From positions 7,032 through 71,031 of the forward strand of contig CAZOPH010000002.1 in NCBI GenBank assembly GCA_964581635.1: DNA of 64,000 bases, given 5' to 3'. A program made the position numbers and the translations under genes. The stretch is from an uncultured Smithella sp. (lineage in GTDB: Bacteria; Desulfobacterota; Syntrophia; Syntrophales; Smithellaceae). The notes below the pieces were generated by a model. The model saw nothing but the letters and a program-made list of their open reading frames with translations, did not search any database and was not told the origin of the DNA. Each line of letters opens with the position of its first letter. Positions within the stretch are counted from its first letter, which is position 1. This document shows, one piece after another, positions 11,552-42,067 of the stretch.

Positions 11552-14120
<2,569 letters not shown>

Positions 14121-14758: not shown

Positions 14759-14788
14759 TTCGGTTAAATAATATCGGGTGTTGGAAAT

Positions 14789-16085: not shown

Positions 16086-16126
16086 GAACGGTCTCGCCAC
16101 CTGTATCGATGATTTCAAATCGTTTT

Positions 16127-16621
16127 CTAAGATGATATTGCACAATCACGGTCATCGCCCTTAATTTTTTCAATGGCGTGTTGAAGCGCGGGTAAAACCG
16201 CAGTGAGATTTTCCCTGGCACCTTTAGGGCTTCCCGGGAGATTGATGATCAGGCACCGGCCGCGAATACCGGCAACAGCGCGGGATATCATGGCATGCGG
16301 GGTAATTTTCATACTGGCGAGGCGCATGGCTTCGGCCATTCCGGGCACTTCCTTGTCAATGACTTTCAGTGTGGCGTCCGGTGTGAGATCACGCGGGCTG
16401 ACTCCCGTGCCACCTGTGGTCAAAATCACATCCAGCTTTTCCACATCAGCGAATTGAATAATCGTTTTTTGTATCTGCTCAACTTCGTCAGGAATGATAA
16501 GAGTCTGTTTTATTTCGATACCGGCTTCCGCAAGCATTTCCGCAATTGCGGGGCCGCTTAGATCCTGCCGTTTGCCTTGTGAACCTTTATCGCTCACTGT
16601 AATGATTCCGGCGCTAAACAT
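16127..16621 (-). CDS. MogA/MoaB-family molybdopterin adenylyltransferase-like protein
   Basis: 164 aa. VSDKGS and TTGGTGVSPRDLTPDA motifs. Confidence 0.87.
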   Translation of the reverse strand: MFSAGIITVSDKGSQGKRQDLSGPAIAEMLAEAGIEIKQTLIIPDEVEQIQKTIIQFADVEKLDVILTTGGTGVSPRDLTPDATLKVIDKEVPGMAEAMRLASMKITPHAMISRAVAGIRGRCLIINLPGSPKGARENLTAVLPALQHAIEKIKGDDRDCAISS

Positions 16622-16627
16622 TTGTGA

Positions 16628-18709
16628 TCATTCTTCCGCCTCTTTTTTCGATTCCGCTATAATTTTGTCCGCAATGTAAGAGGGGACTTCTTCATAATGC
16701 GAATCCGTGTAGGTGAAGTTGCCTCGGCCGCTGGTCATGGAGCGCAGATCGGGAGCATACTTTAATATTTCCGCCAGAGGTACCTGACCTTTAATAACCT
16801 GATTGGTTCCATTGGTGTCCATACCCAGAACGCGTCCTCGGCGACTGTTAAGATCGCCGATGACGTCGCCCATGTATTCGTCAGGGACTTCGATGGCAAT
16901 ATTCACAATGGGTTCCAGCAGGATCGGCTGACAGTCCATAACGCCTTTTTGAAAGGCCATGGAGCCGGCGATTTTAAAGGCCATTTCTGATGAATCTACG
17001 GTATGATAAGAGCCAAAAACCAGAGATATTCTGAAATCCACAACCGGATAACCGGCGATAACGCCTTTGGCCGCAGCTTCCTGAATACCTTTATCTACGG
17101 CTGGGCGGTATTGTCCTGGAATAACCCCGCCGACAATTTTATCCAGAAATTCATACCCTGTGCCACGCGGCAACGGTTCAATATCGATCGTACAATCGCC
17201 AAACTGGCCGCGTCCACCGGACTGTTTCTTGTATCGGCCCTGAACGTTGGTTTTCCCTTTAATAGTTTCCAGATAGGGGACTTTCGGTGTGTTCAGGTTG
17301 ACTTCGACGCCGAATTTTCTTTTCATCTTTTCTACATTGACTTCAATATGCACCTGGCCCATCCCGGAGAGGATCATTTCCTTGGTCTGGACATTACGGG
17401 AAAAGACGATGGTCGGATCTTCTTCCGTAAGACGGTGAATGGAGGAGGCGATCTTGTCTTCATCGCCTCTGGATTTAGGTTCGACCGCAAAAGACATAAT
17501 CGGCGGCGGAACCGCAACTTTTTCAAAGATAATGGGGGTTTTTTCGTTGCAGAGCGTATCACCGGTGACGGTTTCCTTCAGTTTGGCGACACCGGCTATG
17601 TCACCGGGAATGAGCACTTCCGCCTGTTTCTGGTTTTTACCTTCCAGAAAGAAAATATGTCCAAATTTCTCCGTGATTTTTTTCGAAGAGTTATAAACGG
17701 CCGAATCGGAATTGAGTTTACCTGAATAGACCCGAAACAATGTCAGCCTGCCCGCGTAGGGATCGGCAATCGTTTTGAAAACGATCGCAGAAAAAGGAGC
17801 ATCTTCTGAAGGCTGCCTTTCTTCAACACTGTCCGTTCCCGGCTTTTTGCCTTTAACCGGTCCACGGTCAACGGGTGAAGCGAAAGAACTGACAGCGATG
17901 TCCATCAATAGCGTTGCGCCAATACCTTTAAGGGCTGACCCGCAAATGACGGGAATAATGCTTCCGGTTGTCACGCCTTTTCTCAAGCCGGACTTAAGTT
18001 CCTCGGCGGAAAGCTCGCCGGATTCCAAGTATTTATTCATCAGTTCATCGTCGGCTTCCGCGATGTCTTCGACCATGGAACTATGCAGCATGCTGGCCTC
18101 ATCCATCAAGTCAGCGGGAATGTCAGACGCCTTGCCAACGCCTTTGTTGTCGGTAAAAGTAAAAGCCTTCATGGCAATCAAATCAATAATGCCTTGAAAT
18201 TTATCTTCTGCTCCGATGGGCATACAGATGGGGGTTGTTTTCTTCTTGAGTTTTGTTTTGATGCTTTCCAAAACTTTGTTGAAATCCGCTCTTTCACGGT
18301 CCATCCGATTGATGAAAATCATGCGGGGAAGGGAATATTCATCGGCTAGTTCCCAGACTTTTTGTGTCTGAAACTCAACACCGCCGACGGAATCGATAAC
18401 CACAACTGCATTATCCACGATGCTCAGAGAGCATTTAATATCAAAGGTAAAGTTAGAGTCGCCCGGCGTATCCACAATATTAATTTTATGTTTATCCCAT
18501 TCGACAAAATTGGCCGCCGATGAGATTGAAACATGTTTCTTTTGTTCTTCCGGTTCGTAGTCCATGGTGGACGAGCCGTCATCCACACGACCCAGCCGTT
18601 CATTTTTCCCGGAAACGAATAAAAGTGATTCACAAAGAGAGGTTTTACCTGTGCCGCCGTGACCGATTACAGCCATATTTCTAAGAGATTTGGGTTCGAA
18701 CTTTGCCAT
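16628..18709 (-). CDS. EF-G-like translational GTPase paralog with divergent G-domain motifs
   Basis: Five-domain EF-G length. Start ATG at 18709 with an AAGGAG SD 6 nt upstream (the track ORF opens at TTG 18724). G1 is GHGGTGKTS rather than AHIDAGKTT. G3 is DTPGDSNF rather than DTPGHVDF. G4 is NRMD. Confidence 0.9.
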   Translation of the reverse strand: MAKFEPKSLRNMAVIGHGGTGKTSLCESLLFVSGKNERLGRVDDGSSTMDYEPEEQKKHVSISSAANFVEWDKHKINIVDTPGDSNFTFDIKCSLSIVDNAVVVIDSVGGVEFQTQKVWELADEYSLPRMIFINRMDRERADFNKVLESIKTKLKKKTTPICMPIGAEDKFQGIIDLIAMKAFTFTDNKGVGKASDIPADLMDEASMLHSSMVEDIAEADDELMNKYLESGELSAEELKSGLRKGVTTGSIIPVICGSALKGIGATLLMDIAVSSFASPVDRGPVKGKKPGTDSVEERQPSEDAPFSAIVFKTIADPYAGRLTLFRVYSGKLNSDSAVYNSSKKITEKFGHIFFLEGKNQKQAEVLIPGDIAGVAKLKETVTGDTLCNEKTPIIFEKVAVPPPIMSFAVEPKSRGDEDKIASSIHRLTEEDPTIVFSRNVQTKEMILSGMGQVHIEVNVEKMKRKFGVEVNLNTPKVPYLETIKGKTNVQGRYKKQSGGRGQFGDCTIDIEPLPRGTGYEFLDKIVGGVIPGQYRPAVDKGIQEAAAKGVIAGYPVVDFRISLVFGSYHTVDSSEMAFKIAGSMAFQKGVMDCQPILLEPIVNIAIEVPDEYMGDVIGDLNSRRGRVLGMDTNGTNQVIKGQVPLAEILKYAPDLRSMTSGRGNFTYTDSHYEEVPSYIADKIIAESKKEAEE

Positions 18710-18888
18710 GAAAACTCCTTTCAATATCTCAACAAGATCCGCCGAAAGAACTGAAGAAACGGGTTCATTCAGAGTGCTGGGATGTTTAGCCTATCCCGTA
18801 ACTAAAATCAAGATAATTTTCACCTTCTGACGATTGAGGGGGCGTGTTTTGTCCTCTGATGCAAGCTTTCGAAAAGGCGGGCGGACTT

Positions 18889-20586
18889 TCATCTTTTCAG
18901 TAGATTTATTTCACCCAGCCTCATGGGATACAACACTGCAAAAACGCATAGAAACAGCGCAAAAGTAAAAGAAAAGACAAACCAGAGTATTTGTATCCAG
19001 GAAAAGGTGTAACCGTGCATTCTGGCCATAAAGATTTTATAAACAGGCCCCGCTTCCAGGATAATGACCAAAGCAATTAAACCAAAACTAAGGAGCATAA
19101 AAAGTATTCCGCCGAAACTGGTTACTGACAGGGCCGGATTTTCCGATTTGAAATCAGGATAGCAAGCACCCAATCCAACGGCGAGCGCGACTACACCGGG
19201 AACAAGAAAAAATATCGTCAAGACCGATAAAAACATCATAAATGGTGTCACCCCAAGTAGAAGGTTGGAAGCAACAATCAGTATTTCAGACAGAATGAGC
19301 AACGGTATGTAATAAAGAAAAAACTTAATCCAGAGGAATGTTTTCATGGCAACAGGCGCTGATTGAATAATCCAGAAAGCTTCCCCTTCCATGCTGACCG
19401 CCGGAAAAACAAAGCGGGCGGCAATGGCCGCAAGCACAAAAGCGGCCAGCCCCACATTCAAAAAAGAAAAGACATTTTGAAGATAGACCGTTTTGATGGG
19501 CGAGTGATCCAGAGGCAGGACGGAGAAATTATACAGGTAAACAACAATTAATGCGCAGATTAAAAACAATTGCGGCCATTGTGTGGAATCCCGAAAGAAG
19601 GAGCGAATCTCCTTTATGGCGAAAGCTTTTGCCGGTCGAGACAGAAAATTTAACAAACCCTCCCAACCGTATCTTCTTAATTTAACCGGTGAAAAAAGCC
19701 TTTTGGCCGTTGTTTGAGCACGGGAGAAGCCCCGGGAGTAGATGGCACTTGCCATCATTCCATTTATGAAAATCATGGAAAAAGCACAACTGGCCGAAAG
19801 AGCCAGATTAAATATGGAATACGTCCAATTATTGGTTAAGGCGAAGCGCACTGTATCTGTTACCCAGGTCGTGGGCAGATAGGGCAGGCTGAGTGCCTGC
19901 ATAGAATTTAAATACAGAACAGCCGAAGCAAAACTATCCGGATTGACAAGCTGTTCGGGCCGGATCATCCTCAAGACAATTACGAGTAACACCACCAGCA
20001 AAACGCCCAGGATCACAAAAAGGGTACGGATTTTTCCCGCAGGAAGCAAAGCTGCGCCCAGTAAGACTAGCAGGCTGCTGATAGTTGAGGCCATCAGGCA
20101 CAGACATACAATTGCAGTCAGTGAAGCTAAATAGAATGCGGCACCTGCCTGATAGACCAGACCGTAGGATAAAAAGACGGGGAGGCTAAAGGCTACGACC
20201 ATCCATGAGGAATCGAAGACGCTGCTCAACCAGCGTGAAAAGAAAATATCCTTGATCCCAACCGGTAGAGAATGCAACAAAGATAAGTCACGGCTCAAAT
20301 ACAGGTGAGACAGAGAGTTAATAATGCTACTAAAAAGTAATAGGATGAAGAAGGTGATGATCATCATGGAAAGAAGTTTCATGGCCAGGATGTCGCCAAA
20401 ATCCCGCACACTTTGAAAATAGTTTAAAACACGGTAAAATATTAAGAAGGCGCCTATCCAGAAAGCCAGGCCAATCAACAAGAAAAGGGAAAATTGCGTC
20501 CAACGATTATTCCGCTTACCCGGTTTCAATCTCTTTCCGGCGGAAAGCAGCCTCGGTCTCAGTAATGTTAACACCTTGCTTCTCAT
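18889..20586 (-). CDS. Polytopic membrane protein, putative ABC exporter permease (ABC_export-like)
   Basis: 565 aa with at least 10 hydrophobic segments. It starts 4 nt after the ABC ATPase stop. Family assignment is from memory of the N-terminal pattern only. Confidence 0.65.
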   Translation of the reverse strand: MRSKVLTLLRPRLLSAGKRLKPGKRNNRWTQFSLFLLIGLAFWIGAFLIFYRVLNYFQSVRDFGDILAMKLLSMMIITFFILLLFSSIINSLSHLYLSRDLSLLHSLPVGIKDIFFSRWLSSVFDSSWMVVAFSLPVFLSYGLVYQAGAAFYLASLTAIVCLCLMASTISSLLVLLGAALLPAGKIRTLFVILGVLLVVLLVIVLRMIRPEQLVNPDSFASAVLYLNSMQALSLPYLPTTWVTDTVRFALTNNWTYSIFNLALSASCAFSMIFINGMMASAIYSRGFSRAQTTAKRLFSPVKLRRYGWEGLLNFLSRPAKAFAIKEIRSFFRDSTQWPQLFLICALIVVYLYNFSVLPLDHSPIKTVYLQNVFSFLNVGLAAFVLAAIAARFVFPAVSMEGEAFWIIQSAPVAMKTFLWIKFFLYYIPLLILSEILIVASNLLLGVTPFMMFLSVLTIFFLVPGVVALAVGLGACYPDFKSENPALSVTSFGGILFMLLSFGLIALVIILEAGPVYKIFMARMHGYTFSWIQILWFVFSFTFALFLCVFAVLYPMRLGEINLLKR

Positions 20587-23285: not shown

Positions 23286-25373
23286 ATGAAGTTCGACGAT
23301 CAGAAAATACGCAACATTGGAATCAGCGCGCACATCGATTCCGGTAAAACCACGCTTAGCGAAAGGATTCTTTTTTATACGAAAAGAATTCATGCCATCC
23401 ATGATGTGAAAGGCAAGGACGGTGTGGGCGCCACCATGGATTCCATGGAGCTGGAAAAAGAAAGAGGCATTACCATCGCTTCTGCGGCGACCTATTGCGA
23501 ATGGAAAGGGCATGAAATTAATATCATTGACACGCCCGGCCACGTCGATTTCACCATTGAAGTGGAGCGATCCCTGCGTGTTCTGGATGGGGCGATTCTT
23601 GTTTTGTGTTCAGTCGGTGGTGTTCAGTCGCAGTCCATTACTGTTGATCATCAGATGAAGCGCTACAAAGTTCCCTGCATTGCGTTTATCAATAAATGCG
23701 ACCGAAGTGGAGCCAATCCCTTTCGTGTAATCGAACAGCTTCGAACCAAGCTGGGCCACAACGCCGTCGCCATGCAGATTCCTATCGGACTGGAAACAGA
23801 TCTGCAGGGCGTGGTCGATCTGGTGGCCATGCAAGCGATGTATTTTGACGGCGATAATGGTGAAGATGTTCGCATCGAAGAGATTCCGCAAAATCTTCTG
23901 GTGGAAGCCAAAGCCAAAAGAGAAGAACTCATTGACGCCGCATCCATGTTTTCCGATGAACTGACGGAAGCCATTCTGGAAGAAAAAGAAATTTCTCCTG
24001 AACTGCTTTATACTGCTCTTCGCAAGGGAACGTTAAAAAGAGAACTCACACCGGTTTATATGGGGTCGGCCTATAAAAACAAAGCGGTCCAGCCTCTGCT
24101 CGACGGCGTGACGTATCTTCTGCCCACGCCATCCGAAGTGGAAAACATTGCCCTCGATATGGATAATAATGAAGAACCAGTTGTATTGACCAATGATTCA
24201 GAAAAACCAATTATCGCACTGGCGTTCAAACTGGAAGATGGTCAGTATGGCCAATTAACCTATATTCGGGTGTACGAAGGGACGGTGGAAAAAGGTTCAA
24301 CGATCGTCAATGTGCGCAACGGAAAAAAAGTTAAGGTTGGCCGCGTTGTTCGAATGCACGCGGATCAGATGGAAGAGGTCAATCAGCTGCGTGCCGGATA
24401 CATCGGAGCGTTATTCGGCATTGAATGTTCGTCAGGTGATACGTTTGTATCACCGGGCATCAACATGACCATGACCTCCATGTATGTGCCCAAGCCGGTT
24501 ATCTCGCTGGCCATTGTGCCGAAAGACAACAAGTCGCAAATGGCCATGTCTAAGGCCCTTAATCGATTTTCGAAGGAAGATCCGACATTCAAAACGTATG
24601 TCGATCAGGAAACCAACGAAACCATCATCGAAGGCATGGGCGAGTTGCATCTGGATATCTACGTGGAAAGAATGAAGCGCGAATACAGCGCGGAAGTGAC
24701 CACAGGCAATCCCCGTGTGGCTTACCGTGAAACCATTACACAGCGGGCGGATTTCAATTACACGCATAAAAAGCAAACCGGCGGTTCCGGACAGTTTGGA
24801 CGCGTCGCAGGTTATATCGAACCGATCAGTGATGCAGAATTTGTCTTTGAAAACAAAATATTCGGCGGTTCGATTCCCACGCAATATATTGCCGCCTGCG
24901 AAAAAGGTTTTAAGCAGAGCATGTCCAAAGGACCCAAATTGGAGTTTCCGATTACCGGCGTTAAAGTTGTCATCAACGACGGAGCATCGCATGCAGTGGA
25001 TTCTTCGGACATGGCTTTCCAAGCGGCTGCACGGGGCGCTTTCAAAGAAGCTTTTCTGAGAGCCAAGCCGGTTGTTCATGAGCCGATTATGAAAGTTGTT
25101 GTGGAATCGCCGACTGAATTTCAGGGGTCGGTGATGGGTTTACTCAATCAACGCCGTGGCATGATCATCGGTTCGCAGGACGAGGGTGTCATGTGCGTGA
25201 TTGAAGCTCAGGTGCCGTTGGGAGAAATGTTCGGTTTTTCGACCATCCTGCGTTCATCAACACAAGGCAAGGCACAGTTTACGATGGAGTTTGCCCTTTA
25301 TCGTCAGGTCCCGCAGTCGATTGCGGAAAAAATTGCCCTCGAAGTCGCTCAGAACAAGAAGACAGCCGCATAA
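23286..25373 (+). CDS. fusA: Elongation factor G (canonical GTPase motifs), located outside any str operon
   Basis: 695 aa. G1 [10 protein letters not shown]3 DTPGHVDF, G4 NKCD. AGGAGAGG SD upstream of the ATG. Confidence 0.95.
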
Positions 25374-29926: not shown

Positions 29927-30701
29927 TTATTCAGCTGTTGCCAGCCAACCCATCAAAGCCCAGGGTATCATGGCGAAGAATCCCGCCAGGGCAGGACCTC
30001 CCATACCGGTCAACAGAGCGACTAATGTGTTCCCCAATCCAATGACGATGTATGCGAGCACAGCCAGGCGATCGAAACCTTTATCGTCACAGGTTAGCGT
30101 GTCTCGCATGGTTATCAAATACAGGAAAAAGGCGGTGAAAACCGTTAGCCACCATCCCCAATAATTCTGGAGTGGCACACCGAAATAAGCTCCGGTTACT
30201 TCCCAAACCCATTTTCCGCCACGAACCATATAAGGAACTATAACCACATCCCAAGAAGTCATAACTAGGCCGCCAATCGCCGCAAGCAACAGAAAACGCT
30301 TCCAGCCGGCCAGTTTTGCGCCAGTTAGTCGATTGTCAATTACATAGGACGGATACATCATCATAAACCAGATTATAGGGACAAGGTAAGGGACCAGGCC
30401 GAGGAATTTTGGTCCAAGCGACATCGGTGTAATGATATGGACCATAAATAATTCCCGTCGCCGATCCGATGCTCTCGTAAGCCAGACTGATTACGAAGGC
30501 AAAGAAAAATAATGCCAAACCTCGTTTCCATCCTAGACGTTGCCCGGCATGGACAAGCGCGAAGGAGAAGCCAAACAACGCGACGACCTGGAGGTGAGGC
30601 GCAGGACGGTACAGTTTGAAGGGAAGAGAAATAACGGAGTACACCATCAAAAGGATTAAAATGACTAGCAGGATGATTGTGAAGGATTTCAGTTTATTCA
30701 T
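29927..30701 (-). pseudogene. DUF422 / carotenoid-biosynthesis-protein family membrane protein, split by a single-nt frameshift
   Basis: Two overlapping minus-strand ORFs in different frames (30336-30701 and 29927-30445). Together they reconstitute the family pattern ESIGSATGIIYGPYHYTD | SLGPKFLGLVPYLVPIIWFMMMYPSY. The frame change maps to about 30418-30425. Confidence 0.6.
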
Positions 30702-31046: not shown

Positions 31047-32057
31047 TTATGTCCGTCTTCCAAGTTCAAGAAGAATCTTCTGATAGAAATCTTTTTCCCG
31101 TTCCAGAAGCTTCTCCAGAACGGGCATGGCTGGAGAGAAGTCCGGTGTCTCCTCTTCGCTGATCCGCCGGAAGGCTGCGGCCATTTCGTGATAAATATCC
31201 TCAATGACAGTCATATCATCGGAGAGACGAAGTCTTTGGATGGCAGGGTATTTTTCTTCTTGTTCCTCGAGAAACTGCCGATATAGGGTGCGGAATCCGG
31301 CGCCCCCCGTTCCCCGCCGTTCAACAATTTGGTATGTAAAGCGCGCTGACCACTGCCAGTCTGCCGCCTCCTTCCAGTTGGTCAGATCTCGAATGAGCGT
31401 TTCTAACGATTTGACTCCATAGGCGGCGGGCAAACCCGGAATGCCGTTCAAGTTCTCCTCAGCCCACAGACGGATGGCACCCTGCACCACGGTTTCGTCA
31501 ATACGGAACCCCGAGAGGTCCTCAAGGGTGAAGGACTTGTTCTTTAGCAGAAAAGGTGGAAATGCGGCGCTCCGGGCACGCTCCATGTCTGTTATTGTTA
31601 CAGCGAGCGTTTCCGGATGGAGCGTATCCGAAACGTAAAACTCTTCTTTTTTATCATTGTAGCCACAGATGACCACGGCGTGGCCGGGGAAGTGCTGATC
31701 GGTATTGAAGTAGGGAAGGTAGGCGATGTCGGTCTGAACAAGAACCGGTAGGCCGCGGTCCACCGACGCTTTAGCTTGCCGTGTCGCCTCGGCGGCATTT
31801 TCTGTTTCCCGCCACTGGAATTTCAGACCTACTGCCCGAAAGAAGTTATCCTCCAGTTCAAGGCAACGCATGTGGACAAGCCGGGAAGGGAGTTGTTTAA
31901 GGATCAGGTAGAAGAATCCAGGCGCCCTCCCCAAACCGATGACAGTGGGCTCACTAACCTTGATCCCCCGGAATTCCAGGACGTTTCGGATGGCGCTAGA
32001 CGCGCAGTGAAATCCCGGTTGATGCCGGTATCCCGGAATGATCTGATTCTCGAACAT
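31047..32057 (-). CDS. BtrH_N + DUF4872-like protein (papain-like Cys/His fold)
   Basis: N-terminus GFHCASSAIRNVLEFRGIKVSE with candidate nucleophile Cys. FPGHAVVICGY is the candidate His. Family assignment is from memory of the BtrH N-terminal pattern. Confidence 0.75.
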   Translation of the reverse strand: MFENQIIPGYRHQPGFHCASSAIRNVLEFRGIKVSEPTVIGLGRAPGFFYLILKQLPSRLVHMRCLELEDNFFRAVGLKFQWRETENAAEATRQAKASVDRGLPVLVQTDIAYLPYFNTDQHFPGHAVVICGYNDKKEEFYVSDTLHPETLAVTITDMERARSAAFPPFLLKNKSFTLEDLSGFRIDETVVQGAIRLWAEENLNGIPGLPAAYGVKSLETLIRDLTNWKEAADWQWSARFTYQIVERRGTGGAGFRTLYRQFLEEQEEKYPAIQRLRLSDDMTVIEDIYHEMAAAFRRISEEETPDFSPAMPVLEKLLEREKDFYQKILLELGRRT

Positions 32058-32511
32058 GCTGATCTTCCTGCTGGGAATGCATTTCTAGCTTGTGAGAACG
32101 CTTGGGGTATTCCATTGAAACAGGTTTCCCACTCTCTCAGACTGAGGAAATGGCCATACCTGTAAATCGAAACAGTTCCCAGTTCGTTCAGTGCTAGTGT
32201 CAATTTTTTTGATTGTAACCTTGCATATTTTTGAAATATCATCAACTGAAGAGTACTGAAGAAACAAATAAAAAAATGATGTCTTTCAATATTATTGTCC
32301 TCGCCCAGTAGAAGCTTACAAATTGTTTTGATAGATACAAAAAAAAGACAGCTTCATCGGGGCTTGACAAGATGACTCCCGATGAGGTTTACTGAGTCAC
32401 AATACAGAAGTTGAAGGAAGCAGTATGAACCAGAGCCGCTAACCACTTATAACCCGCTCCAGGTTGTCTAAAGAAAACAGACCACCTCTGTTGAAAGAAT
32501 AACTCCTATCA

Positions 32512-35500
32512 ATGGAGCTAAAGATGGAAAACGCTCGGAAGCAATATCTTTTAAGACAACAAGAAGAAGATTCATCTTATGTAGGCCAAAGTTCACATAC
32601 TGATAAGCTAAAAGTCTTAAAAATACAGCGCACCTGTGTTCATGACGGCCCCGGAATCCGCACAACGATTTTCTTTCAGGGGTGCGGATTGAGGTGCTTG
32701 TGGTGCCAGAATCCGGAAGCGCTGTCATTCCATCCCGACCTAGCGCCAGACAGGGATTATTCGATTTCCGACATAATCGAACTTGTTTTGAGAGACAAGG
32801 ATTATTACTACAAAACAAACGGCGGGGTGACCCTGAGCGGCGGCGATCCTTTATTCCAGGACACGGATAGCCTGATGCCTTTACTGGAATCGTTAACGAA
32901 AGAGAACATACATGTGGCCGTTGAAACTTCCCTTCACGCACCTTGGGGAAATGTAGAGAAATTGGCGCCTTACGTAGATCTGTTTCTTGTTGACTTGAAG
33001 ATTGTCGGTGATGACGGCCTCCATAAGAAGTACACCAAGCAGGACAGCAAACTTATCCAAGATAATATAGAGAAACTGATTGCTTTAAACGCCAAGGTTA
33101 AATTCCGCATGGTGATGGTGCCGGGTTACAACGATAGAGAAAGCAATATTAAAGCGACTGCGGATTTCTTGAAGTCTGTCCATCACAACTCCATCGAGCT
33201 GCTGAAATACAACAACATGTATGAAGAGCAAGCCAGGCGTCTCGGATTGGTAACACAATCGTTGAATATCACAAATGACCAAAGTCTTACCTCTGTAAAA
33301 AAAGCCGTTGAATTATTTGAATATCTTGTCATCAAAGCCGAGTGTTATGATCTGGATGCTTCCAGACACAAAGCCGTTTTTCCCAAGCGCGTTTATGACA
33401 TACAAAACGCCATCAGAGAAAGTGGCAGGGGTCTCTGTTTTGAAGTATCCAGACTGAAGACAGATTACTACAAGAAGAATGGTTTTGAAAAACCGAACCC
33501 GATTCACAGAGCGGAACGTCTGTCTTATGTTCTGGCCAACAAAAGTGTTGTCATCTATCCTCAGGAACTGCTTGTCGGCAATTTCACCGCCAAGAGATGC
33601 GCTGGTCAAATATGGGAAGAGCACTATGGCGCTCTCTTTGCTTCGATTCTCCATCAGATCCATCGCCAGAAACCGGTTCCATTCCAGTGTTCCTGGGAGG
33701 ACAGACTCAACTTCTTTTATAGAACACTTCCTTTCTGGATGAGACACTGCCTTTTAATGAAGGTAAATAACTCCATTTCCAAGTTTATATCAGCTATTGC
33801 ACGCTCTTCCGAGAACGTTGCGGGATTCAATAATAACATGGCCGCAATCGCTCATTTTAACGTCAACTTCGATCGCATGCTTCAGTTGGGAACCACAGGA
33901 ATCATAAAAGAGATTGAAATCGCGCGAAAAGGAAAGCCTGGCATTAGCCAGGCCTTCTACGAGGGAGCAATCATCGGCCTCAAGGCTTTGGAAACGTTTG
34001 CCGCACGTTACGCCGACAGCCTGAAAAAGCTGAGCCGGGAAGAATCGGATACGGGACGCCGCCAAGAATTGGAAGAAATGGCTGCGATCTGCAGGCATGT
34101 TCCCAAATACCCTGCCCGCACGTTCCATGAAGCGCTCCAGAGTATGATGTTTTTGCAGATCGCGATTTGTACAGAATCCTATGAAAATGCGATATCCCAT
34201 GGACGCCTCGATCAGGTATTATATCCCTACTATAAAAAGGATAAAGAGGCCGGTGTCATTGATTACGATAAGGCGAAAGAACTGCTGGCCTTATATATTC
34301 TCAAAATGGACGAAGCCATCCTGGTCAATGATGGCGATACCTATCTGAGAATCGGAAGACTCTTCGAAACGATGTCCACCGATCAGGCTGTAACAGCCGG
34401 AGGTCTTGGCAGAGACGGTAGAGATGCCACCAATGATGTTACTTATATGCTTCTCGATATTTGCGAACTGCAACCTTACGCCTGCAATATGGCAGCCAGA
34501 ATTCATAAAGACAGCCCTCCCGAATATCTGGATAGGCTTGCGGAGATATATATAAATGGCGCACCCATGCCTGCTTTGTATAATGATGAAATTTATCTGA
34601 AAACTTTGGCAAAGCATTACCCTGCCACCCCCGTAGAGGATGCTAGGAATTACGCGATAATCGGGTGCGTTGAACCAAATGTTTCGGATGATCATTTTGG
34701 TAATACCGACTGCGCCAATGTGAACGTTGCCTTGCCTTTCTTACAGGCCCTGAAAGGCGAAGAAGACGATCTGTGGAACGTCGGCCTGGTCGATCAACTG
34801 GAAAAAATGACCACGAAGTTCTTCGAATACAATTGCAGAAGAAACAATAAATATTCTCACTATGTTCTGGCAAAATATATGAACACCCGGAAACGTTTCA
34901 AGCGGAAGAGAGCCTCCACACCTAAGCCACCTGCGAACATGGATGAGTTGCTTCAACGCTTTCAGGTACGTTTGAATCATCTGATCAACGCCATCTTGGT
35001 CGATCACCAGAATATTGAAAAGGTGATTCGTGAAAACTTTACAACGCCCCTTTCATCAGCACTCTTTAAGGGTTGTATTGAAAGCGGAAAAGACCTGTGC
35101 GAAGGCGGCGCAACGATAAACAGCAGCGGCATTCAGGCGATTGGGATTACGGATGTTGCGGATTCGTTATTGGCCATTAACGAGGTGGTATATAAACAGA
35201 AGCGGTATTCAATTCATGACATCATCAACGCCATAGACAACAACTTCGAGGGGGAAGATTATCAGCAGATCAGATTGTCATTACTCGACGTTCCGAAATT
35301 TGGTCATGACGGTTCGTGTGAAGCAATCGCTTGGGTAAACAAAACATTGCAGATTTATGTGAACGCATTGAACTCGGTCGAGAACTGTCCTAGAGGCGGC
35401 ATATATACTGCTGGATATTACGCTTTGAATGTAAATGATGTTTACGGAAAGAAAACGCCTGCGTTGCCTTCAGGGAGATTGAGCGGCGTTTCTCTTGCTA

Positions 35501-35865
35501 ATAGTATTACGCCTCATTATGGAATGCAGACGACCGATTTATTGTCATCACTGAATGCTGTCGCCGATGTTGATTTTGCAACCTATGCTTCCAATGGCAC
35601 CACCGTTACGTTCACGGTTGACTCGGCGCTGTTCCAAGGTCCGGATGGAGTCAGAAACCTCTCAGGGATAATTAGGACATACTTTGACAAAGGCGGCATG
35701 CAGTTTCAGCCAAACGTAATCAACAGACAGATATTACTGGACGCATACGACCATCCGGGAAAATACCCGAATCTTCTGATTCGTGTTGCCGGTTACTGCT
35801 CATACTTCAATGAACTTTCGGATGATTTGAAAAAGATCATCATAAACAGAACCTGTTATTGTTAG
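32512..35865 (+). CDS. Fusion protein: glycyl-radical-enzyme activating enzyme (radical SAM, PflA type) at the N-terminus and a PFL2/glycerol-dehydratase-class glycyl radical enzyme at the C-terminus
   Basis: Single uninterrupted 1117-aa ORF. Activase part: VHDGPGIRTTIFFQGCGLRCLWCQNPE (CX3CX2C = C58/C62/C65, nt 32683-32706) and GGVTLSGGDPL. GRE part: thiyl loop IIGCVEPN (C719/E721, nt 34666-34674), CEGGATINSSG, PKFGHDG, and the C-terminal glycyl radical motif LIRVAGYCSYF (G1094, nt 35791-35793). Confidence 0.92.
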   Translation: MELKMENARKQYLLRQQEEDSSYVGQSSHTDKLKVLKIQRTCVHDGPGIRTTIFFQGCGLRCLWCQNPEALSFHPDLAPDRDYSISDIIELVLRDKDYYYKTNGGVTLSGGDPLFQDTDSLMPLLESLTKENIHVAVETSLHAPWGNVEKLAPYVDLFLVDLKIVGDDGLHKKYTKQDSKLIQDNIEKLIALNAKVKFRMVMVPGYNDRESNIKATADFLKSVHHNSIELLKYNNMYEEQARRLGLVTQSLNITNDQSLTSVKKAVELFEYLVIKAECYDLDASRHKAVFPKRVYDIQNAIRESGRGLCFEVSRLKTDYYKKNGFEKPNPIHRAERLSYVLANKSVVIYPQELLVGNFTAKRCAGQIWEEHYGALFASILHQIHRQKPVPFQCSWEDRLNFFYRTLPFWMRHCLLMKVNNSISKFISAIARSSENVAGFNNNMAAIAHFNVNFDRMLQLGTTGIIKEIEIARKGKPGISQAFYEGAIIGLKALETFAARYADSLKKLSREESDTGRRQELEEMAAICRHVPKYPARTFHEALQSMMFLQIAICTESYENAISHGRLDQVLYPYYKKDKEAGVIDYDKAKELLALYILKMDEAILVNDGDTYLRIGRLFETMSTDQAVTAGGLGRDGRDATNDVTYMLLDICELQPYACNMAARIHKDSPPEYLDRLAEIYINGAPMPALYNDEIYLKTLAKHYPATPVEDARNYAIIGCVEPNVSDDHFGNTDCANVNVALPFLQALKGEEDDLWNVGLVDQLEKMTTKFFEYNCRRNNKYSHYVLAKYMNTRKRFKRKRASTPKPPANMDELLQRFQVRLNHLINAILVDHQNIEKVIRENFTTPLSSALFKGCIESGKDLCEGGATINSSGIQAIGITDVADSLLAINEVVYKQKRYSIHDIINAIDNNFEGEDYQQIRLSLLDVPKFGHDGSCEAIAWVNKTLQIYVNALNSVENCPRGGIYTAGYYALNVNDVYGKKTPALPSGRLSGVSLANSITPHYGMQTTDLLSSLNAVADVDFATYASNGTTVTFTVDSALFQGPDGVRNLSGIIRTYFDKGGMQFQPNVINRQILLDAYDHPGKYPNLLIRVAGYCSYFNELSDDLKKIIINRTCYC

Positions 35866-36003
35866 ACTCGGATTATTTATTAGAGGAACACTTTTGTAGT
35901 TATGATAATGTTTGGCAGAAGATGTTATTAAAATTTTGCTTTATTTGGACCTCAAAAACACTAAATAGGCCCACAGAAGAATATTAAGCAGACAGGAGAA
36001 TTA

Positions 36004-36708
36004 ATGGCTAAAATAAATTTTATCATTACTGCGGCATTTGTGCTTTTGATCATTGCTTCAACCAGCTTTGCTGACGGCAAGTACCAATGGAAACTTGCCG
36101 ATACTGAAGATGGATGCCAGATCTATACAAGTGTGGTTGCCGGCAGAGATTATGTCGCGTCCAAAGCCACCTGCGTTATCCCCGCCAGAATAGAAGTAAT
36201 CGGCATGGTCCTCAGGGATATTGCTAACTATCCGGCATGGATGCAAGATTGCAAAGAAACAAAAATATTAAAAGTTGTAGATGATGTAAACGATGTTTTT
36301 GTATTCTGGTTCCGTCAGCATATTACGCTGCTTACAGACAGGGATATGGTCATAAAAAGCAAAACAATCATTAGCACTGAAAAAGGTCAAAATCTTATTT
36401 TCGCTGACGCAACGAATGAAATTCCCTACGACCCCGGCAAAGGATATGTCCGAATGCCTTCCTTTCATTCATGGTTTATCCTTGAGTGGATAGATCGGGA
36501 ACACACCAGGGTAACATTTATGATAGATCCAGACCTTGGCAAAGGGATACCAATCGGGATTGCTAACAACACAATCAAATCGACGCCATTCAAAACTTTA
36601 AAAAAAATGACGAAAATGGTGAAACTGAGCAAATATGTTGAATCGGCCAAGATATCTAAATACAATAAGTTTGCTGAGGAATATGTGAAGGCTGGGCATA
36701 AGCAGTAA
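36004..36708 (+). CDS. Secreted START/SRPBCC-like lipid-binding domain protein
   Basis: Signal peptide MAKINFIITAAFVLLIIASTSFA. The body pattern (W..L....G..IY......., RDMV.. block) resembles bacterial START domains. Assigned from memory. Confidence 0.65.
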   Translation: MAKINFIITAAFVLLIIASTSFADGKYQWKLADTEDGCQIYTSVVAGRDYVASKATCVIPARIEVIGMVLRDIANYPAWMQDCKETKILKVVDDVNDVFVFWFRQHITLLTDRDMVIKSKTIISTEKGQNLIFADATNEIPYDPGKGYVRMPSFHSWFILEWIDREHTRVTFMIDPDLGKGIPIGIANNTIKSTPFKTLKKMTKMVKLSKYVESAKISKYNKFAEEYVKAGHKQ

Positions 36709-36779
36709 CACCACCACAATACTCTAAAGTAACATGTGGTACAAATATCGAAAGCACGTCAGGCCAAGGAGAGGCAACT

Positions 36780-38369
36780 ATGAAAGAAAAAAATCTTATT
36801 CTTGCTGTTGATGTTGGTACCACTGCGACGAAAGCGGTAATCGTAAGCCCTGATGGATACATAGGTTCCGGTCAATCAACCTGTAGTCTCTCCTATCCGG
36901 ACAAGTCGTGCGTTGAGCAGTCGCCGCTGGAGATATCGGATGCCATATATAATGCCAGCAGAGATGTTCTTGCTGCGCATCCTGATCTGGCCGGAAGGCT
37001 AGCCGGCCTCGTGTTCACGAGCCAGATGCAAAACACCGTTCCGGTGGGCAAGGACGGAAAGCCTCTCATGAACATGCTCTCTTGGATGGATGAACGTGCT
37101 GCCTGTTTCACGCAGGAAGAAATGTTTAAAGGTCTTGTCAAGATTGAAGGCTACCCCATCTTAAAACTTCTCAAATTCATGAGAATAACCGGCGGCGCAC
37201 CCGGGAAAACAGGGAAGGATACTGTGTGCAAGCTTGCCTGGTTAAAAAAATACAAGCCGGACTTGTATCAATCAGTCCATAAATTTCTGGACGCAAAAGA
37301 TTATGCCATTTTTCTTGCAACCGGTCATTATGTGACTTCATACGACATGGCAAACGTCACCTGGCTCATGGATACGCGCAATAAGGACCAGGGGAAGTGG
37401 GTCTGGTCGGAAGATATTCATAAAATGTATGGACTCGATTCACGCAAAATGCCTGAGCTAAGGGCATCAACGGCAATCGCAGGCCATGTCACGGCGGATT
37501 ATTCTACAAAAACCGGCGTTCCAATCGGCCTTCCTGTCGTGAACGGGTCCGGCGACTTACTTGCATCGGCTATTGGCTCCGGCGCGATTGAGATGGGAAA
37601 CATGCACGTTAATATCGGCACAGCCGGTTGGGTCGCCACTCACCACCCTGGGACTGCTGTCGATACACAACATTACGTGGGGGCAATCGTATCGGGAATT
37701 CCAGGTAGGTTCCTGTTGATCAGCAAGCAGGAAACACTGGGTGCGGCTTTGGACTGGCTTAAGGACATGCTGTATCCTTCCGAGCTCATGCAGGGAAAAT
37801 CAACCTCTGAAATATACGAGATAATGGACAAAGAAGCGGCCAACTCGCCCCCTGGCGGGAATCATGTCATCTTAACTCCTTGGCTTTTCGGGGAGCGATC
37901 ACCCATCAATAATCCGTACCTGCGAGGGCAGATATTCAACATTCGCATGAATACAACACGGGCCGATCTCTGCAGGTCCGCGATGGAAGGGGTTGCATTT
38001 AATATCCGCTGGGGAATGGAATTCGTGGAAAAGATGTCATTGAAAAAAAGTAAACCGACCACCGATGAAGTCCGATTTATCGGCGGCGCTTCAAAGAGCA
38101 ACGTATGGTGTCAGATCTTAGCGGATGTTTTGCAGAAGCCGATTGTGCAAATGATGAATCCCCAGATGGCATCCGCGCAGGGTGCTGCGGCCATCGCGAT
38201 GGTTTCCTTTGGAATTTACAAGAATTTCAGCGCAATAAACAGGATGCTAAAGAAAGGAAACTCTTTCAAACCGAATCCTGGTAACAAGGCGATGTATGAC
38301 AATCTTTATAAACACTATCAAGCGTTGTATAAAAACAATAAAAGCAGTTTCAAAGATCTCAATCATTAA
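36780..38369 (+). CDS. FGGY-family carbohydrate/polyol kinase (xylulokinase-like rather than GlpK-like)
   Basis: N-terminal LAVDVGTTATKAVIV. Mid-region GSGDLLASAIGSG. C-terminal FIGGASKSNVWCQILADVL. Confidence 0.9.
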   Translation: MKEKNLILAVDVGTTATKAVIVSPDGYIGSGQSTCSLSYPDKSCVEQSPLEISDAIYNASRDVLAAHPDLAGRLAGLVFTSQMQNTVPVGKDGKPLMNMLSWMDERAACFTQEEMFKGLVKIEGYPILKLLKFMRITGGAPGKTGKDTVCKLAWLKKYKPDLYQSVHKFLDAKDYAIFLATGHYVTSYDMANVTWLMDTRNKDQGKWVWSEDIHKMYGLDSRKMPELRASTAIAGHVTADYSTKTGVPIGLPVVNGSGDLLASAIGSGAIEMGNMHVNIGTAGWVATHHPGTAVDTQHYVGAIVSGIPGRFLLISKQETLGAALDWLKDMLYPSELMQGKSTSEIYEIMDKEAANSPPGGNHVILTPWLFGERSPINNPYLRGQIFNIRMNTTRADLCRSAMEGVAFNIRWGMEFVEKMSLKKSKPTTDEVRFIGGASKSNVWCQILADVLQKPIVQMMNPQMASAQGAAAIAMVSFGIYKNFSAINRMLKKGNSFKPNPGNKAMYDNLYKHYQALYKNNKSSFKDLNH

Positions 38370-38378
38370 GGTGTATTT

Positions 38379-39998
38379 ATGATGAAGCGTTTCATGGATG
38401 ACTACAAGAACGAATCATTCGATGTTCTCGTTATCGGAGGGGGTATTACGGGCGCCGCTGTTGCCTACGATGCTGCGAGCAGGGGGCTGAGCGTTGCGCT
38501 TGTGGAAAAAAGCGATTTCGGCTGGGCGACATCCGCCGCAACTTCCAAAGTAATCCACGGCGGCTTGCGATACCTGAAAACCTTCGAATTCGGCCTTGTG
38601 CGCGAGTCTCTTAGTGAACGCAGAATTATGGGGAATATAGCCCCTAACTTTGTCTATCCCACTCCATTCATGTTCGTCAATCCAACATTGGTCATGAAGA
38701 TCGGTCTTTTCGTTTACGATCTGCTCGCGTTCGATAAAAAATTCACATGGGACAAAAGCAAGAAAATCCCTAATCATTATTCCCTGTCTAAAGAAGAAGT
38801 TATTGAGAGGGTGCCGAACGTTAAACGCGAGGGTTTGCAAGGGGCCCGGGTCTATTATGACAGCCTCAATATTTTTCCCGAGCGGTTGACGCTAACATTT
38901 ATCAAATCGGCCATTCATTATGGAGCAAGAGTTTCAAACTATACCGAGGTGCAAGATTTTTTCGTAAAAGAGGGCAATAAGGTTTCCGGTATCGTGGTGC
39001 GGGATCTTGTGAACAACAGATCGCACACTATCAAAGGAAAACTAATCATCAACTGCTCCGGACCCTGGGCAGACATTGTCCTCAGACTGGCCAAAAAAGG
39101 TGATTCGCAAGGTAAGATCCGTCGCTCCGAAGGGATCCACCTCATTGTAACAAATCTCATCAATAACCAGGCCGTCGGCACCATGACGAAGACAGGCCAT
39201 TTTTTTCTAATACCCTGGCGCGGGCATTCATTAATTGGAACGACAGACAAGGAGTATCCAGGAACTCCGGATGACTATCACGTGACCAGGCAAAGCATCC
39301 AGGATCTGCTGGATACGGTGAACATGGATTTCGGCAACAATAATCCCCTTCAATATCAGGATGTGTTGTTTTCATACGGCGGTTTGCGTCCACTTCTCGA
39401 TACAAGGGGAGAGGATGTGCACACCATTACCCGTAAATACGAGATTTATGACCATTCAGATGAAGGACTTCCGGGCCTTATAACCGTGGAGGGCGGTAAG
39501 TTCACCACCAGCCGCAATCTCGCGCAGAATGTTTTAAATACGGTGGAAAAGAGACTGGGGAGAAGACTCGGCAAGTGTATAACTCATAAACAACGGCTTA
39601 TCGGTTGCGAGATAAAAGACATTAAAATATTTGTTGATTCTATAAAAAAAGAAAACAGTGATTTTAAAAATACGACCGTTGAATACCTCGGCAGAAATTA
39701 CGGTACTGAATTTGACAAGGTCCTGACGCTTGCGCGACAGGATAAAAAGCTTGCAGAAATTGTAAATAGTGACGGCGAAATACTGGCTCAAGTCGTTTAC
39801 GCCGTCCGCGAAGAAATGGCCCAATCGCTTGCCGATATTGTTCTGAGAAGAACCGGGATTGGTACCTTGGGAAATCCGGGAAGGGAAGTCCTGGAGAAAG
39901 TTGCTGCTGTTGCCGCACAAGAGTTGAATTGGGATGTCTCAAGGATTTCCCGGGAGATCGAAGAGGTTGAAAGAATATTACAGATTCCACGAGCATGA
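38379..39998 (+). CDS. FAD-dependent glycerol-3-phosphate dehydrogenase-like oxidoreductase (GlpD/GlpA family)
   Basis: [53 protein letters not shown], plus a C-terminal alpha-glycerophosphate-oxidase-type domain. Confidence 0.87.
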
Positions 39999-42067
39999 TG
40001 CCACATAATCGACTGCAAAAGGAGAAAAGCCCCTACTTGCTCCAGCATGCTCATAATCCGGTGGACTGGTATCCCTGGGGTGAGGAAGCTTTTGAAAAAG
40101 CGCAATTGGAAGACAAACCTGTTTTTCTGTCTATTGGATATTCGACTTGTCACTGGTGCCACGTGATGGAACGCGAATCCTTTGCGGATAAAGAGGTCGC
40201 CGGGCTTCTCAATGAAGCGTTTGTGAGCATTAAAGTTGATCGTGAAGAGCGCCCCGATATCGACGCGGTTTACATGAAGGTATGCCAGTTCATGACGCAA
40301 AGCGGCGGATGGCCTTTGACCATCATGATGACGCCCGATAAAAAACCCTTTTTTGCCGCGACCTATATTCCCAAAAAAACACGATATGGCAGGGTTGGAC
40401 TGCTGGAGATGATTCCAAAAGTCAAATCCTTCTGGCAGACGAAACGTGCGGATGTTCTTTCCGTGGCATCGGAAATTACACAACTCGTGCAACAGCCGAC
40501 CATCAGCAACGCAAAAGATTTTGGCGAAGAAACGCTGCATCGTGCGTATCGATCTTTCTCCATGAGCTTTGACCGGACATACGGGGGCTTCGGTCAGGCA
40601 CCAAAATTTCCCTCTCCGCACAATTTCTTTTTTCTCTTGCGCTATTGGAAACGAACCGGCAATGTGCAGGCTTTGCATATGGTGGAACACACGCTGCAAA
40701 ACATGCGTTACGGCGGGATCTGCGATCAGATAGGATTCGGTTTTCACCGCTATTCGACGGATGCTCGCTGGATCGTTCCACATTTTGAAAAAATGCTCTA
40801 TGATCAAGCGCTTATGGCGATGGCTTTTATAGAACTTTATCAGGCAACCGGAAAAAAGAAATACGAAATATCAGCCCGTGAAATATTTACCTATGTTCTG
40901 CGCGATCTAACCGACGACCGTGGCGGTTTCTATTGCGCCGAAGATGCGGACAGCGAAGGCATGGAAGGCAAGTTCTATTTATGGACAGAGGAAGAGATCC
41001 ACAGCGTTCTTACTCAGAGCGAATCGGATTTGTTCCTGTCTTACTACAGGCACCATAGTGACATATCTATGCCGGGCATGCAGGAAATACCAGACGGTTA
41101 CTTTATTCCGCATCTTAATCCGTCATCAATAGACGATGCAGAGGATGGTTTGACGGGATTCTTCTGTAAAATGGAGGGCATTCGAAAAAAGCTCTTCGCG
41201 GTTCGGGAAAAGCGAGTGCGACCGCATAAAGACGACAAGATTCTGACCGACTGGAATGGCCTGATGATTGCGGCGCTGGCCTGTGGCGCGCGAGTCTTTG
41301 ATGAGCCAACTTACTCTGACGCTGCACTCCGGGCGATGAATTTTATTATTCAATCGCTGCAAACCAAAGAGGGCAGGCTGTTGCATCGATTTCGGGACGG
41401 CCAGGGGTCCATCCCAGCAAACATCGATGACTATTCGTTTATGGTTTGGGCCCTCCTGGAGCTCTACGAGGCAACGTTTGATACAAAGCATCTGTTCAAA
41501 GCATTGGAATTCCAGTCGCACTTATTTGCTTATTTTGTGGATGATCAAAACGGCGGATTCTTTTTTACACCTGCTGACGCGGAAGAGCTTTTGACGCGTC
41601 CCAAAGAACTTCATGACGGCGCCATCCCGTCGGGCAATTCCATTGCATTTATCAATACCTTGCGTCTATCGAGGTTCACCGGCAATGCCAAGATGGATGA
41701 AAGCGCGCGCGAAATTTACAGAGCTTTTGGCGCGCCGGTGGATACGATGCCGACGGCCTATACACAATTTCTGTGTGGGCTTGACTTTGCCATTGGTCCG
41801 GCAAGCGAAGTGATTATTGACGGATATATGAACAAGGAAGATACACGCTTGATGCTGCGTGCTTTAAGAAAAAGTTTTTTGCCCAACACGATCGTTATCT
41901 TTCGATCCGAGGGTTCAACGCCGCCTGATATAGAAACGATCGCGCCGTTTGTGCAATTCCATTCAATACGCAATGGTCAGGCAACCGCCTACGTCTGCTC
42001 GAATTTTACCTGTTCGCTGCCGACGAATGATCCGGAGAAAATGATTGAACTGCTGCATAAGAAGTAG
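39995..42067 (+). CDS. DUF255 thioredoxin-domain protein (YyaL/SPATA20-like: Trx-fold + six-hairpin domain)
   Basis: N-terminus [22 protein letters not shown] ... [18 protein letters not shown] overlap with the upstream dehydrogenase gene. Confidence 0.9.

Follow-up and report, generated by a model that had tools for sequence, protein, structure and literature searches.

A fused activase-glycyl radical enzyme beside an FGGY kinase and a GlpD-type dehydrogenase in an uncultured Smithella: two separately conserved units with a possible common role in polyol dissimilation

We analysed a stretch of 64,000 nucleotides (nt) from an uncultured Smithella sp. (assembly GCA_964581635.1, contig CAZOPH010000002.1, positions 7,032 to 71,031 of the forward strand), called the window here, in which an 11-kb block of genes includes a glycyl radical enzyme (GRE) fused to an activase. 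In our reading, to which we give an even chance, the block brings together, in one clade only, two units that are conserved independently of each other and that serve a single dissimilation of a glycerol-like polyol with two branches. The first unit would be a self-sufficient GRE of the diol dehydratase type with a fused minimal PflA-type activase and its own promoter/leader. In the second unit an FGGY-family kinase would phosphorylate a glycerol-like polyol, and a flavoprotein of the GlpD type would oxidise the polyol phosphate to a ketose or triose phosphate. The two units stand head to tail in the Smithella-like clade and would be co-transcribed there. The oxidative branch would thus pass from the kinase through the dehydrogenase into glycolysis, and in the radical branch the GRE would dehydrate or eliminate the same or a related vicinal diol to give an aldehyde or ketone that acts as electron sink. 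The scheme follows the logic of glycerol fermentation, and both the scheme and the substrate class are what we infer from the observations, namely the gene content and catalytic motifs, the separate conservation of each unit, and the repeated occurrence in other lineages of GRE genes next to glycerol-3-phosphate (G3P) dehydrogenase and FGGY genes.

Conservation of the gene neighbourhood

Downstream of the GRE lie genes for a START-domain protein, the FGGY kinase, the GlpD-like dehydrogenase and a DUF255 protein, and a gene with BtrH_N and DUF4872 domains is transcribed divergently (Table 1). The initial annotation had regarded all six genes as one locus built around the GRE and had proposed comparing its conservation in related genomes. 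For this comparison 79 genome loci with GRE homologues (labelled with L numbers below), each with at most 10 kb of flank per side, were searched by tblastn with 15 window proteins. No BtrH_N, START, FGGY (E<=1e-10, orthologue level), GlpD or DUF255 gene was found adjoining the GRE in any of them (±10 kb where the contig allows). The same holds for three Smithella loci (L001-L003) in which the GRE is 85-88% identical. The whole block occurs only in the source contig, in an identical 7.6-kb contig and in the ENA contig L080 with a GRE of 92% identity (together L080-L082), so that the layout is limited to GREs of at least 92% identity; START and BtrH_N are also found beside the GRE only in these three. 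Even L080 has other genes upstream of BtrH_N, and there GlpD and DUF255 do not overlap but stand 186 nt apart. It may be added that the non-syntenic part of L080 carries a group II intron reverse transcriptase (286-1533; RVT_1 and GIIM domains) about 8 kb upstream of the block. Since none of the 79 loci keeps orthologous neighbours, the six genes do not form a conserved unit, and the locus was rejected as a candidate; judged by these comparisons, it does not qualify as a conserved GRE catabolic gene cluster.

The GRE by itself is a different matter. Forty-eight loci with the fused GRE were sampled (L001-L046, L049 and L050), and their two closest genes per side, tallied by Pfam family, comprised a GntR/FCD regulator in 10 cases and a transporter of the glycoside-pentoside-hexuronide (GPH) type (MFS_2) in 5, with other families scattered. 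All-versus-all clustering of the flanking open reading frames (ORFs) returned these same two as the only recurrent neighbours. The fused GRE is thus essentially a solitary gene, accompanied at most by a GntR/FCD regulator or a GPH transporter. No remnant of the GRE-linked GntR regulator was found when the window was searched for one. The sequence ahead of the GRE is conserved along with it (Table 1), with matching stretches at 9679-10000 of L080 and 9783-10011 of L001. In L001 this leader is kept though no window neighbour is shared and a convergent gene follows the GRE; therefore the GRE and its promoter/leader form an autonomous unit. The leader includes a TTGACA box resembling a -35 element at about 32365 and a predicted untranslated leader of about 130-150 nt, and no Rfam family (riboswitch or other known RNA) matches the 454-nt leader region. 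The conserved non-coding stretch of about 230 nt may be a leader that regulates this GRE specifically.

The kinase and the dehydrogenase form the other unit. Orthologues of the FGGY kinase with 46-95% identity are present in Smithella, Desulfomonilia, Spirochaetes, Desulfobacterales and Asgard archaea, and their contexts were sampled in seven cases, five of them from new lineages. In Desulfomonilia a gap of 13 nt separates the FGGY gene (79% identity) from the GlpD-like gene (78%) downstream, and none of the GRE, START and DUF255 genes lies within 10 kb. Adjacency of FGGY and GlpD without a GRE in this group marks the pair as a second, independently conserved module. The pair is adjacent in L083-86 and in L089, where GlpD orthologues (78% in L083, 64% in L089) come directly after FGGY and DUF255 does not follow. 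In one Smithella the FGGY orthologue is found alone beside an integrase. START, DUF255 and BtrH_N follow neither unit and are clade-specific accessories or passengers; a role for DUF255 in the system is not supported, and BtrH_N is only a putative member.

The fused activase-GRE

Homologues of the fused GRE number 528 at E<=1e-50. Those from Smithella, Syntrophaceae, Desulfomonilia and Myxococcota share 67-92% identity with it, those from Leptospira and other Spirochaetota, Clostridia, Hydrogenedentota and metagenome-assembled genomes (MAGs) of Asgard archaea (Promethearchaeota) 49-65%. The Asgard MAG loci with the fusion are L020, L023, L033 and L049. A second, distant fused family in Enterobacteria was considered and rejected, as loci at 27-35% identity mostly have a separate activase and GRE, with fusions only in L047 and L051; the neighbours of the GREs at these identities show no common theme.

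The N-terminal domain has a CX3CX2C motif (C58/C62/C65) and scores 206 bits with TIGR02494 (cutoff 174), on the strength of which it is assigned as a GRE-activating radical S-adenosylmethionine (SAM) enzyme. Since the first 300 residues of the fused protein hold only 5 cysteines, it is a minimal activase of the PflA type, lacking the ferredoxin-like insert for auxiliary iron-sulfur clusters. The activases of the characterised eliminases are not known to be like it in this respect. The GRE domain matches PF02901 with 436 bits and PF01228 with 77 bits. The activase cysteines, the GCVEP loop at 718-722 with C719 and the glycyl motif RVAGY at 1091-1095 are invariant in an alignment of 12 diverse members. 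With a PFL-like fold, the glycyl motif and the Cys loop, the window enzyme is placed in the GRE superfamily. Within it, the GCVEP loop, H448 (equivalent to H164 of glycerol dehydratase) and D733 (equivalent to D447) assign it to the class of 1,2-eliminases/dehydratases; CXE as the mark of the GRE eliminases is taken from a review, which also names C433, E435 and H164 of glycerol dehydratase (PMC13450708).

The best PDB relatives of the GRE are three diol/glycerol dehydratases with 326-339 bits, namely 9rco, the 1,2-propanediol dehydratase of the GRM3 type (PMC12756279), 5i2a, the propanediol dehydratase of Roseburia, and 1r8w, from the DhaB1/DhaB2 system of Clostridium butyricum. Equivalents of glycerol dehydratase N156, H164, C433, E435, D447 and Y640 are kept, while N559, A560 and D624, which are invariant in the family, stand in the places of H281, S282 and Y339. 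A family-specific basic insert of about 60 residues follows the Cys loop (residues about 746-807). With TIGR01774 the GRE scores 488 bits against a cutoff of 678, and it reaches the cutoff of no equivalog model. The top NCBIfam equivalog matches are HpfG (362 bits) and HpsG (354 bits), which are far under their 1000-bit cutoffs, and the HpsG structure 6lon comes only 13th among the PDB matches. Given the changed contact residues and the TIGR01774 score, the enzyme falls outside the glycerol dehydratase family as far as its sequence can tell. From the structure we take N156, D447, Y640, H281, S282 and Y339 of glycerol dehydratase to be substrate contacts. As the dehydratase residues are kept but three of these contacts are exchanged, we read the GRE, partly on these presumed roles, as a probable vicinal-diol (C-O) eliminase in which the 'tail' of the substrate would differ from that of glycerol.

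The kinase and the dehydrogenase

The initial annotation had called the kinase xylulokinase-like rather than GlpK-like, and the scores agree with this (277 bits for XylB against 133 for GlpK). Both are below the respective equivalog cutoffs of 380 and 590, so that what the kinase satisfies are the FGGY Pfam domains, and its assignment is best left at the family level. Its distance to xylulokinases, gluconokinases and archaeal glycerol kinases is about equal. The dehydrogenase has the DAO and DAO_C architecture and scores 312 bits with the GlpD model NF008899 (cutoff 360). All its PDB matches are G3P dehydrogenases or oxidases, and the motifs GGLRYL, GLRPL and GGKxTT are kept, which we take to be the motifs by which GlpD binds G3P (phosphate and substrate). 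The substrate of the GlpD-like enzyme could be G3P or a close polyol phosphate.

Recurrence of the association in other lineages

The initial annotation had also proposed a catabolic logic of GRE, kinase and G3P dehydrogenase. Such genes do adjoin GREs of at least three subfamilies (in L030, L051, L059 and L089), not however as a conserved locus. In L089, a Spirochaete MAG, a TetR gene, a GCVEP-type GRE of 998 amino acids (29% identical to the window GRE) and an activase gene are followed by FGGY (70%) and GlpD (64%). Farther downstream in the same MAG are the sugar-modifying genes GFO_IDH_MocA and AP_endonuc_2 and an MFS_2 (GPH-type) transporter. L030, from a termite-gut Oscillospiraceae MAG, has the fused GRE (54%) followed by four genes on the same strand with tiny gaps: 44 nt after the GRE comes a DAO, BFD and Pyr_redox_2 protein (GlpA/B-like), then DUF1667, an FGGY kinase and a GlcD-like flavoprotein (13342-20132). 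The L030 kinase is XylB-like (219 bits against 115 for GlpK); with 22.5% identity to the window kinase it is not orthologous. The trio of flavoprotein, FGGY and G3P-dehydrogenase-like genes in L030 resembles the operon PA3026-PA3024 of Pseudomonas aeruginosa. In L059 a GlpD-like gene (284 bits) lies 384 nt upstream of a separate activase and GRE, and in L051 a GlpA-like gene is 2.4 kb away from a fused GRE of 33% identity.

A rough null was calculated by taking about 1.5 G3P-dehydrogenase-type genes per genome of 3500 genes, six neighbour positions and about 83 GRE loci. On this basis about 0.2 G3P-dehydrogenase-like neighbours are expected by chance against the 4 observed besides the window. 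The hypothesis was fixed before the other loci were examined, and therefore no look-elsewhere penalty applies. Crude as the estimate is, the recurrent adjacency argues against pure coincidence. A wider claim can be made only tentatively, and we think it rather unlikely as stated: that an XylB-like FGGY kinase and a flavoenzyme of the G3P dehydrogenase type are recurring partners of several orphan GRE eliminase families, including the widespread self-activating one that extends from Smithella and termite-gut Clostridia to Asgard archaea, and that they would make up a radical pathway, anaerobic and so far undescribed, by which a glycerol-like polyol, a polyol phosphate or a glyceryl conjugate is broken down.

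The GRE of L089 belongs to a family of about 998 residues (L089 5946-9853; L094, L097, L098 and L100) with an N-terminal extension of about 200 residues, the GCVEP loop, a separate activase and often a TetR gene. Its members share 64-78% identity in Spirochaetota, Syntrophales, Desulfobacterales and Acidobacteriota and are usually solitary. At the position where glycerol dehydratase reads M-Y-Q, this family and the window GRE share S-[ST]-D-Q. A regular tie of the 998-residue family to FGGY-GlpD was considered and rejected, as none of four further contexts has it. On the P0188/P0252 contig there is no FGGY gene within 10 kb upstream of the 998-residue-type GRE, and the contig ends directly after the GRE.

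Genes of the phosphoester type flank fused GREs in several places: GDPD and a PI-PLC-X-like gene in L025, Exo_endo_phos in L044 and Metallophos in three loci including L009. A gene of the Sulfatase/LtaS superfamily flanks it in three Leptospira/Spirochaete loci. These flanks hint at phosphoester metabolism. In the Asgard loci L023 (2094-3698) and L049 (3183-6298), one or two genes resembling D-3-phosphoglycerate dehydrogenase (2-Hacid_dh and ACT domains) precede the fused GRE, which may be another link to a C3 phosphate or may reflect shared ancestry of the two loci.

Weighing of the explanations

Several observations weigh against the proposed two-branch dissimilation. Kinase and dehydrogenase genes adjoin the fused GRE in only one of the 48 sampled loci (L030), and the 998-residue family is solitary in four of its five sampled contexts. 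The null model is rough and the sampling small. FGGY orthologues sometimes stand alone. They are also found in other company, with a 218-residue hydrolase of the haloacid dehalogenase (HAD) type in two lineages (L090 10001-12260; L091 10001-12459) and, in a Lokiarchaeon, after an amino-oxidase gene resembling phytoene desaturase (L092/L093 8371-11575). Orthologues of the window kinase evidently serve more than one context. For the reductive branch, neither an alcohol nor an aldehyde dehydrogenase gene is present nearby (±10 kb; annotated window ORFs). Lastly, the exchange of H281, S282 and Y339 in the GRE is invariant, and with a kinase that is not GlpK-like these three changed contacts make glycerol itself doubtful as a substrate.

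The strongest of the rival explanations is possible, though on the unlikely side: that the GRE, START and FGGY-GlpD(-DUF255) genes are unrelated and were joined by rearrangement in one clade, the adjacencies elsewhere being coincidental or due to the shared nature of anaerobic carbon catabolism. It would account for the lack of orthologous neighbours in all 79 loci, even at 85-88% GRE identity, for the GRE having its own conserved leader and, in L001, a convergent gene after it, and for the gap of 138 nt and separate strong ribosome-binding site ahead of START. The heterogeneous FGGY contexts and the position of the block amid housekeeping genes agree with it as well. It does not readily explain the four further independent adjacencies of GRE and G3P dehydrogenase, two of them with an XylB-like FGGY kinase, where about 0.2 would be expected; these moreover involve non-orthologous genes and different GRE subfamilies.

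It is improbable, in our view, that the block serves the salvage of lipid head groups or glycerophosphodiesters, whereby the START protein would capture a glycerolipid-derived compound, phosphoesterases would free the glycerol moiety, the GRE would act on the non-phosphorylated part, and FGGY and GlpD would feed the glycerol part to glycolysis. The START protein does have a signal peptide and sits directly between GRE and kinase, in several lineages the fused GRE has genes of the phosphoesterase type at its side (L025, L044, L009 and others), and in P. aeruginosa an operon with a non-GlpK FGGY kinase and a GlpD homologue is co-regulated with lipid genes (PMC8151288). Yet START is confined to the clade of at least 92% identity, the phosphoesterases are of unrelated families, each in one lineage, and the window block has no lipase, acyl-hydrolase or transporter. 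An Arg/Lys cluster for phosphate was not identified in the GRE pocket, though no rigorous search was made.

Least probable of all, and only a slight chance, is a linear route in which FGGY would supply a polyol phosphate for isomerisation or elimination by the GRE, with the GlpD-like enzyme oxidising a product or a side substrate, in the manner of YbiW/PflD on anhydro-alditol-6-phosphates. HpfG and HpsG, both enzymes of 2,3-dihydroxypropane-1-sulfonate (DHPS), are the best equivalog matches, though far below cutoffs, and DHPS looks like a sulfonate counterpart of glycerol phosphate. In Clostridia the GRE has sugar-type GPH transporters beside it, and the L089 cluster has its sugar-modifying genes and MFS_2 transporter downstream. 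GRE isomerases acting on polyols phosphorylated by a kinase or by a phosphotransferase system (PTS) are established (PMC13450708). On the other side, the neighbourhood lacks an aldolase, the GRE shares little identity with YbiW and PflD, which come after the diol dehydratases among its matches, it has no demonstrated phosphate-binding residues, and the known YbiW/PflD scheme has no role for GlpD.

Gene content and surroundings

All ORF coordinates of the initial annotation were reproduced by the ORF listing and the domains by Pfam and NCBIfam (Table 1). It had counted five genes after the GRE while listing four; five is the number of + strand genes with the GRE included. Gene callers place the start of the fused GRE at 32524. 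The gaps from the GRE through DUF255 on the + strand are 138, 71, 9 and -4 nt. Its junctions read as it had described them, with a spacer of 9 nt between FGGY and GlpD, an ATGA overlap between GlpD and DUF255 and a divergent intergenic region of 454 nt between BtrH_N and the GRE. The START protein, likewise as annotated before, has a clear N-terminal signal peptide of the Sec type (MAKINFIITAAFVLLIIASTSFA, with predicted cleavage before DG), and its gene is preceded by a strong AGGAG ribosome-binding site. The BtrH_N protein scores 128 bits with the NCBIfam model DarH_acyl (cutoff 300).

Table 1. Genes and regulatory sequence of the block, in window coordinates.
Feature	Coordinates	Strand	Supporting evidence
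BtrH_N + DUF4872 protein, Cys-protease-fold acyltransferase-like	31047-32057	-	Pfam BtrH_N 123 bits, DUF4872 103 bits
Conserved GRE promoter/leader (putative)	32294-32523	+	87% identity to L080, 83% to L001 over 230 nt
Fused activase + PFL2-type GRE, predicted 1,2-eliminase, 1117 aa	32512-35865	+	Radical_SAM/Fer4_12 aa 41-268, PFL-like + Gly_radical aa 292-1114
START/Bet v1-like ligand-binding protein, predicted secreted	36004-36708	+	Pfam START 32 bits (cutoff 22)
FGGY-family kinase	36780-38369	+	FGGY_N + FGGY_C
GlpD-type FAD-dependent (glycerol/polyol)-phosphate dehydrogenase (predicted)	38379-39998	+	DAO + DAO_C
DUF255 protein, thioredoxin-like N-terminus, (alpha/alpha)6-like C-terminus	39995-42067	+	Thioredox_DsbH 260 bits

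For the neighbours, window annotation covered ORFs of at least 180 amino acids. In line with the initial annotation, the vicinity of the block (±10 kb; annotated window ORFs) is without aldehyde or alcohol dehydrogenase, shell protein and transporter genes. A microcompartment set of the GRM type (bacterial microcompartment (BMC) shell, aldehyde dehydrogenase and phosphotransacylase) was also not found, either within ±10 kb or among the annotated window ORFs. The sole transporter-type genes among them are of the ABC type (18889-20586) and PTS EIIC-like (54508-55203), both more than 10 kb from the block. The latter is of the sorbose type and stands alone, with no other PTS component among the annotated neighbouring ORFs.

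On the right the block is bordered by convergent genes for a DUF2845 protein and a methyltransferase, then by recC/recB/recD, and on the left by CruF-like fragments and a GGDEF-PAS-HD protein; the flanks and the remaining window are made up of housekeeping genes. The CruF/Caroten_synth-like fragments are two adjacent short ORFs on the - strand (29927-30445 and 30336-30701; gene calls of 111 and 121 amino acids in L081), which suggest a carotenoid hydratase gene that has been split or has decayed, the host being apparently a Smithella-like syntroph. By sequence the window matches contig JAKLDY010000001.1 of MAG GCA_022703275.1, and its closest relatives carry the annotation Smithella or Syntrophaceae. 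Two full-length EF-G paralogues (16628-18724 on the - strand and 23286-25373 on the + strand) are at most 7 kb apart. No signature of a mobile element was found at the block, with no tRNA and no integrase in gene calls within ±10 kb, and its GC content of 0.44-0.49 is inside the range found across the window.

Scans of the sequence gave 21 promoter-like sites against 20.8 in shuffles, which is chance level, and 18 terminator-like sites against 12.8 (sd 3.9), which is slightly higher. From the GRE stop to the DUF255 stop, none of the intergenic gaps has a terminator-like site on the + strand, and the lone + strand match in this span, at 38629, is within the GlpD coding sequence. Save for these terminator-free + strand gaps, the scans are uninformative.

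Relation to known systems and significance

The B12-independent dehydratases nearest to the GRE share with it the CXE Cys loop, the glycyl motif and the equivalents of N156, H164, D447 and Y640. Unlike them, the window enzyme has its activase, apparently devoid of auxiliary clusters, fused at the N-terminus, an insert of about 60 residues, and N559, A560 and D624. The association of the GRE with an oxidative branch of kinase and G3P dehydrogenase mirrors glycerol dissimilation of the dha type; in contrast to the dha loci the block has no 1,3-propanediol dehydrogenase and no shell gene, and the kinase is not GlpK. In the catabolism of erythritol by Brucella and Mycolicibacterium, the FGGY kinase EryA acts along with the GlpD-like polyol-phosphate dehydrogenase EryB. 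The likeness to the window is one of architecture only, a non-GlpK FGGY kinase and then a GlpD homologue; EryC/EryH/EryI isomerases are absent from the window, and the host is anaerobic and has a GRE. HpfG (DHPS dehydratase) and HpsG (sulfolyase), eliminases of C3 vicinal diols, provide the best equivalog models for the GRE domain, but at scores far under cutoff and with no sulfonate or sulfite genes near the window GRE.

YbiW/PflD, as a CXE GRE that acts on a phosphorylated polyol after a phosphorylation step, is a precedent for the logic of 'kinase + GRE' (PMC13450708). These enzymes however score only 252-284 bits to the window GRE, and the window has no aldolase/HAD partner. The Enterobacter-type loci L074-L079 have unfused GREs with TAL_FSA/HAD neighbours, unlike the window. 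The operon PA3026-PA3024 in the GliR regulon of P. aeruginosa encodes an FAD oxidoreductase, a GlpD homologue and an FGGY kinase, which its authors tie to glycerolipid metabolism (PMC8151288). It can be likened by gene content to the window, as both have a non-GlpK FGGY kinase and a GlpD homologue, and the GlcD-like FAD protein of L030 parallels PA3026; P. aeruginosa is, however, an aerobic host and the operon has no GRE. The locus thus matches none of the known GRE types (glycerol, propanediol, choline, hydroxyproline, sulfonate or anhydro-alditol), which agrees with the initial annotation. A search of the literature found nothing specific on the fused GRE or on a cluster of GRE, FGGY and GlpD, and in a 2026 review of GREs the words 'fused' and 'fusion' do not occur. 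The locus would belong, as a variant, to GRE-eliminase-based polyol catabolism; in its exact form it is narrowly distributed and in part accidental.

The fused activase-GRE is a large and strongly conserved orphan family with no function assigned. Since the gene is usually solitary, genome context rarely informs on it. The pathway should be read without START, DUF255 and BtrH_N, and if the link between the two units is wrong, the locus is an ordinary juxtaposition. The window clade, L030 and L089 are among the few contexts that point to a substrate class, namely glycerol-like polyols handled through a kinase and a G3P-dehydrogenase-type enzyme, and this link of context turns an orphan GRE into one with a short and testable list of candidate substrates.

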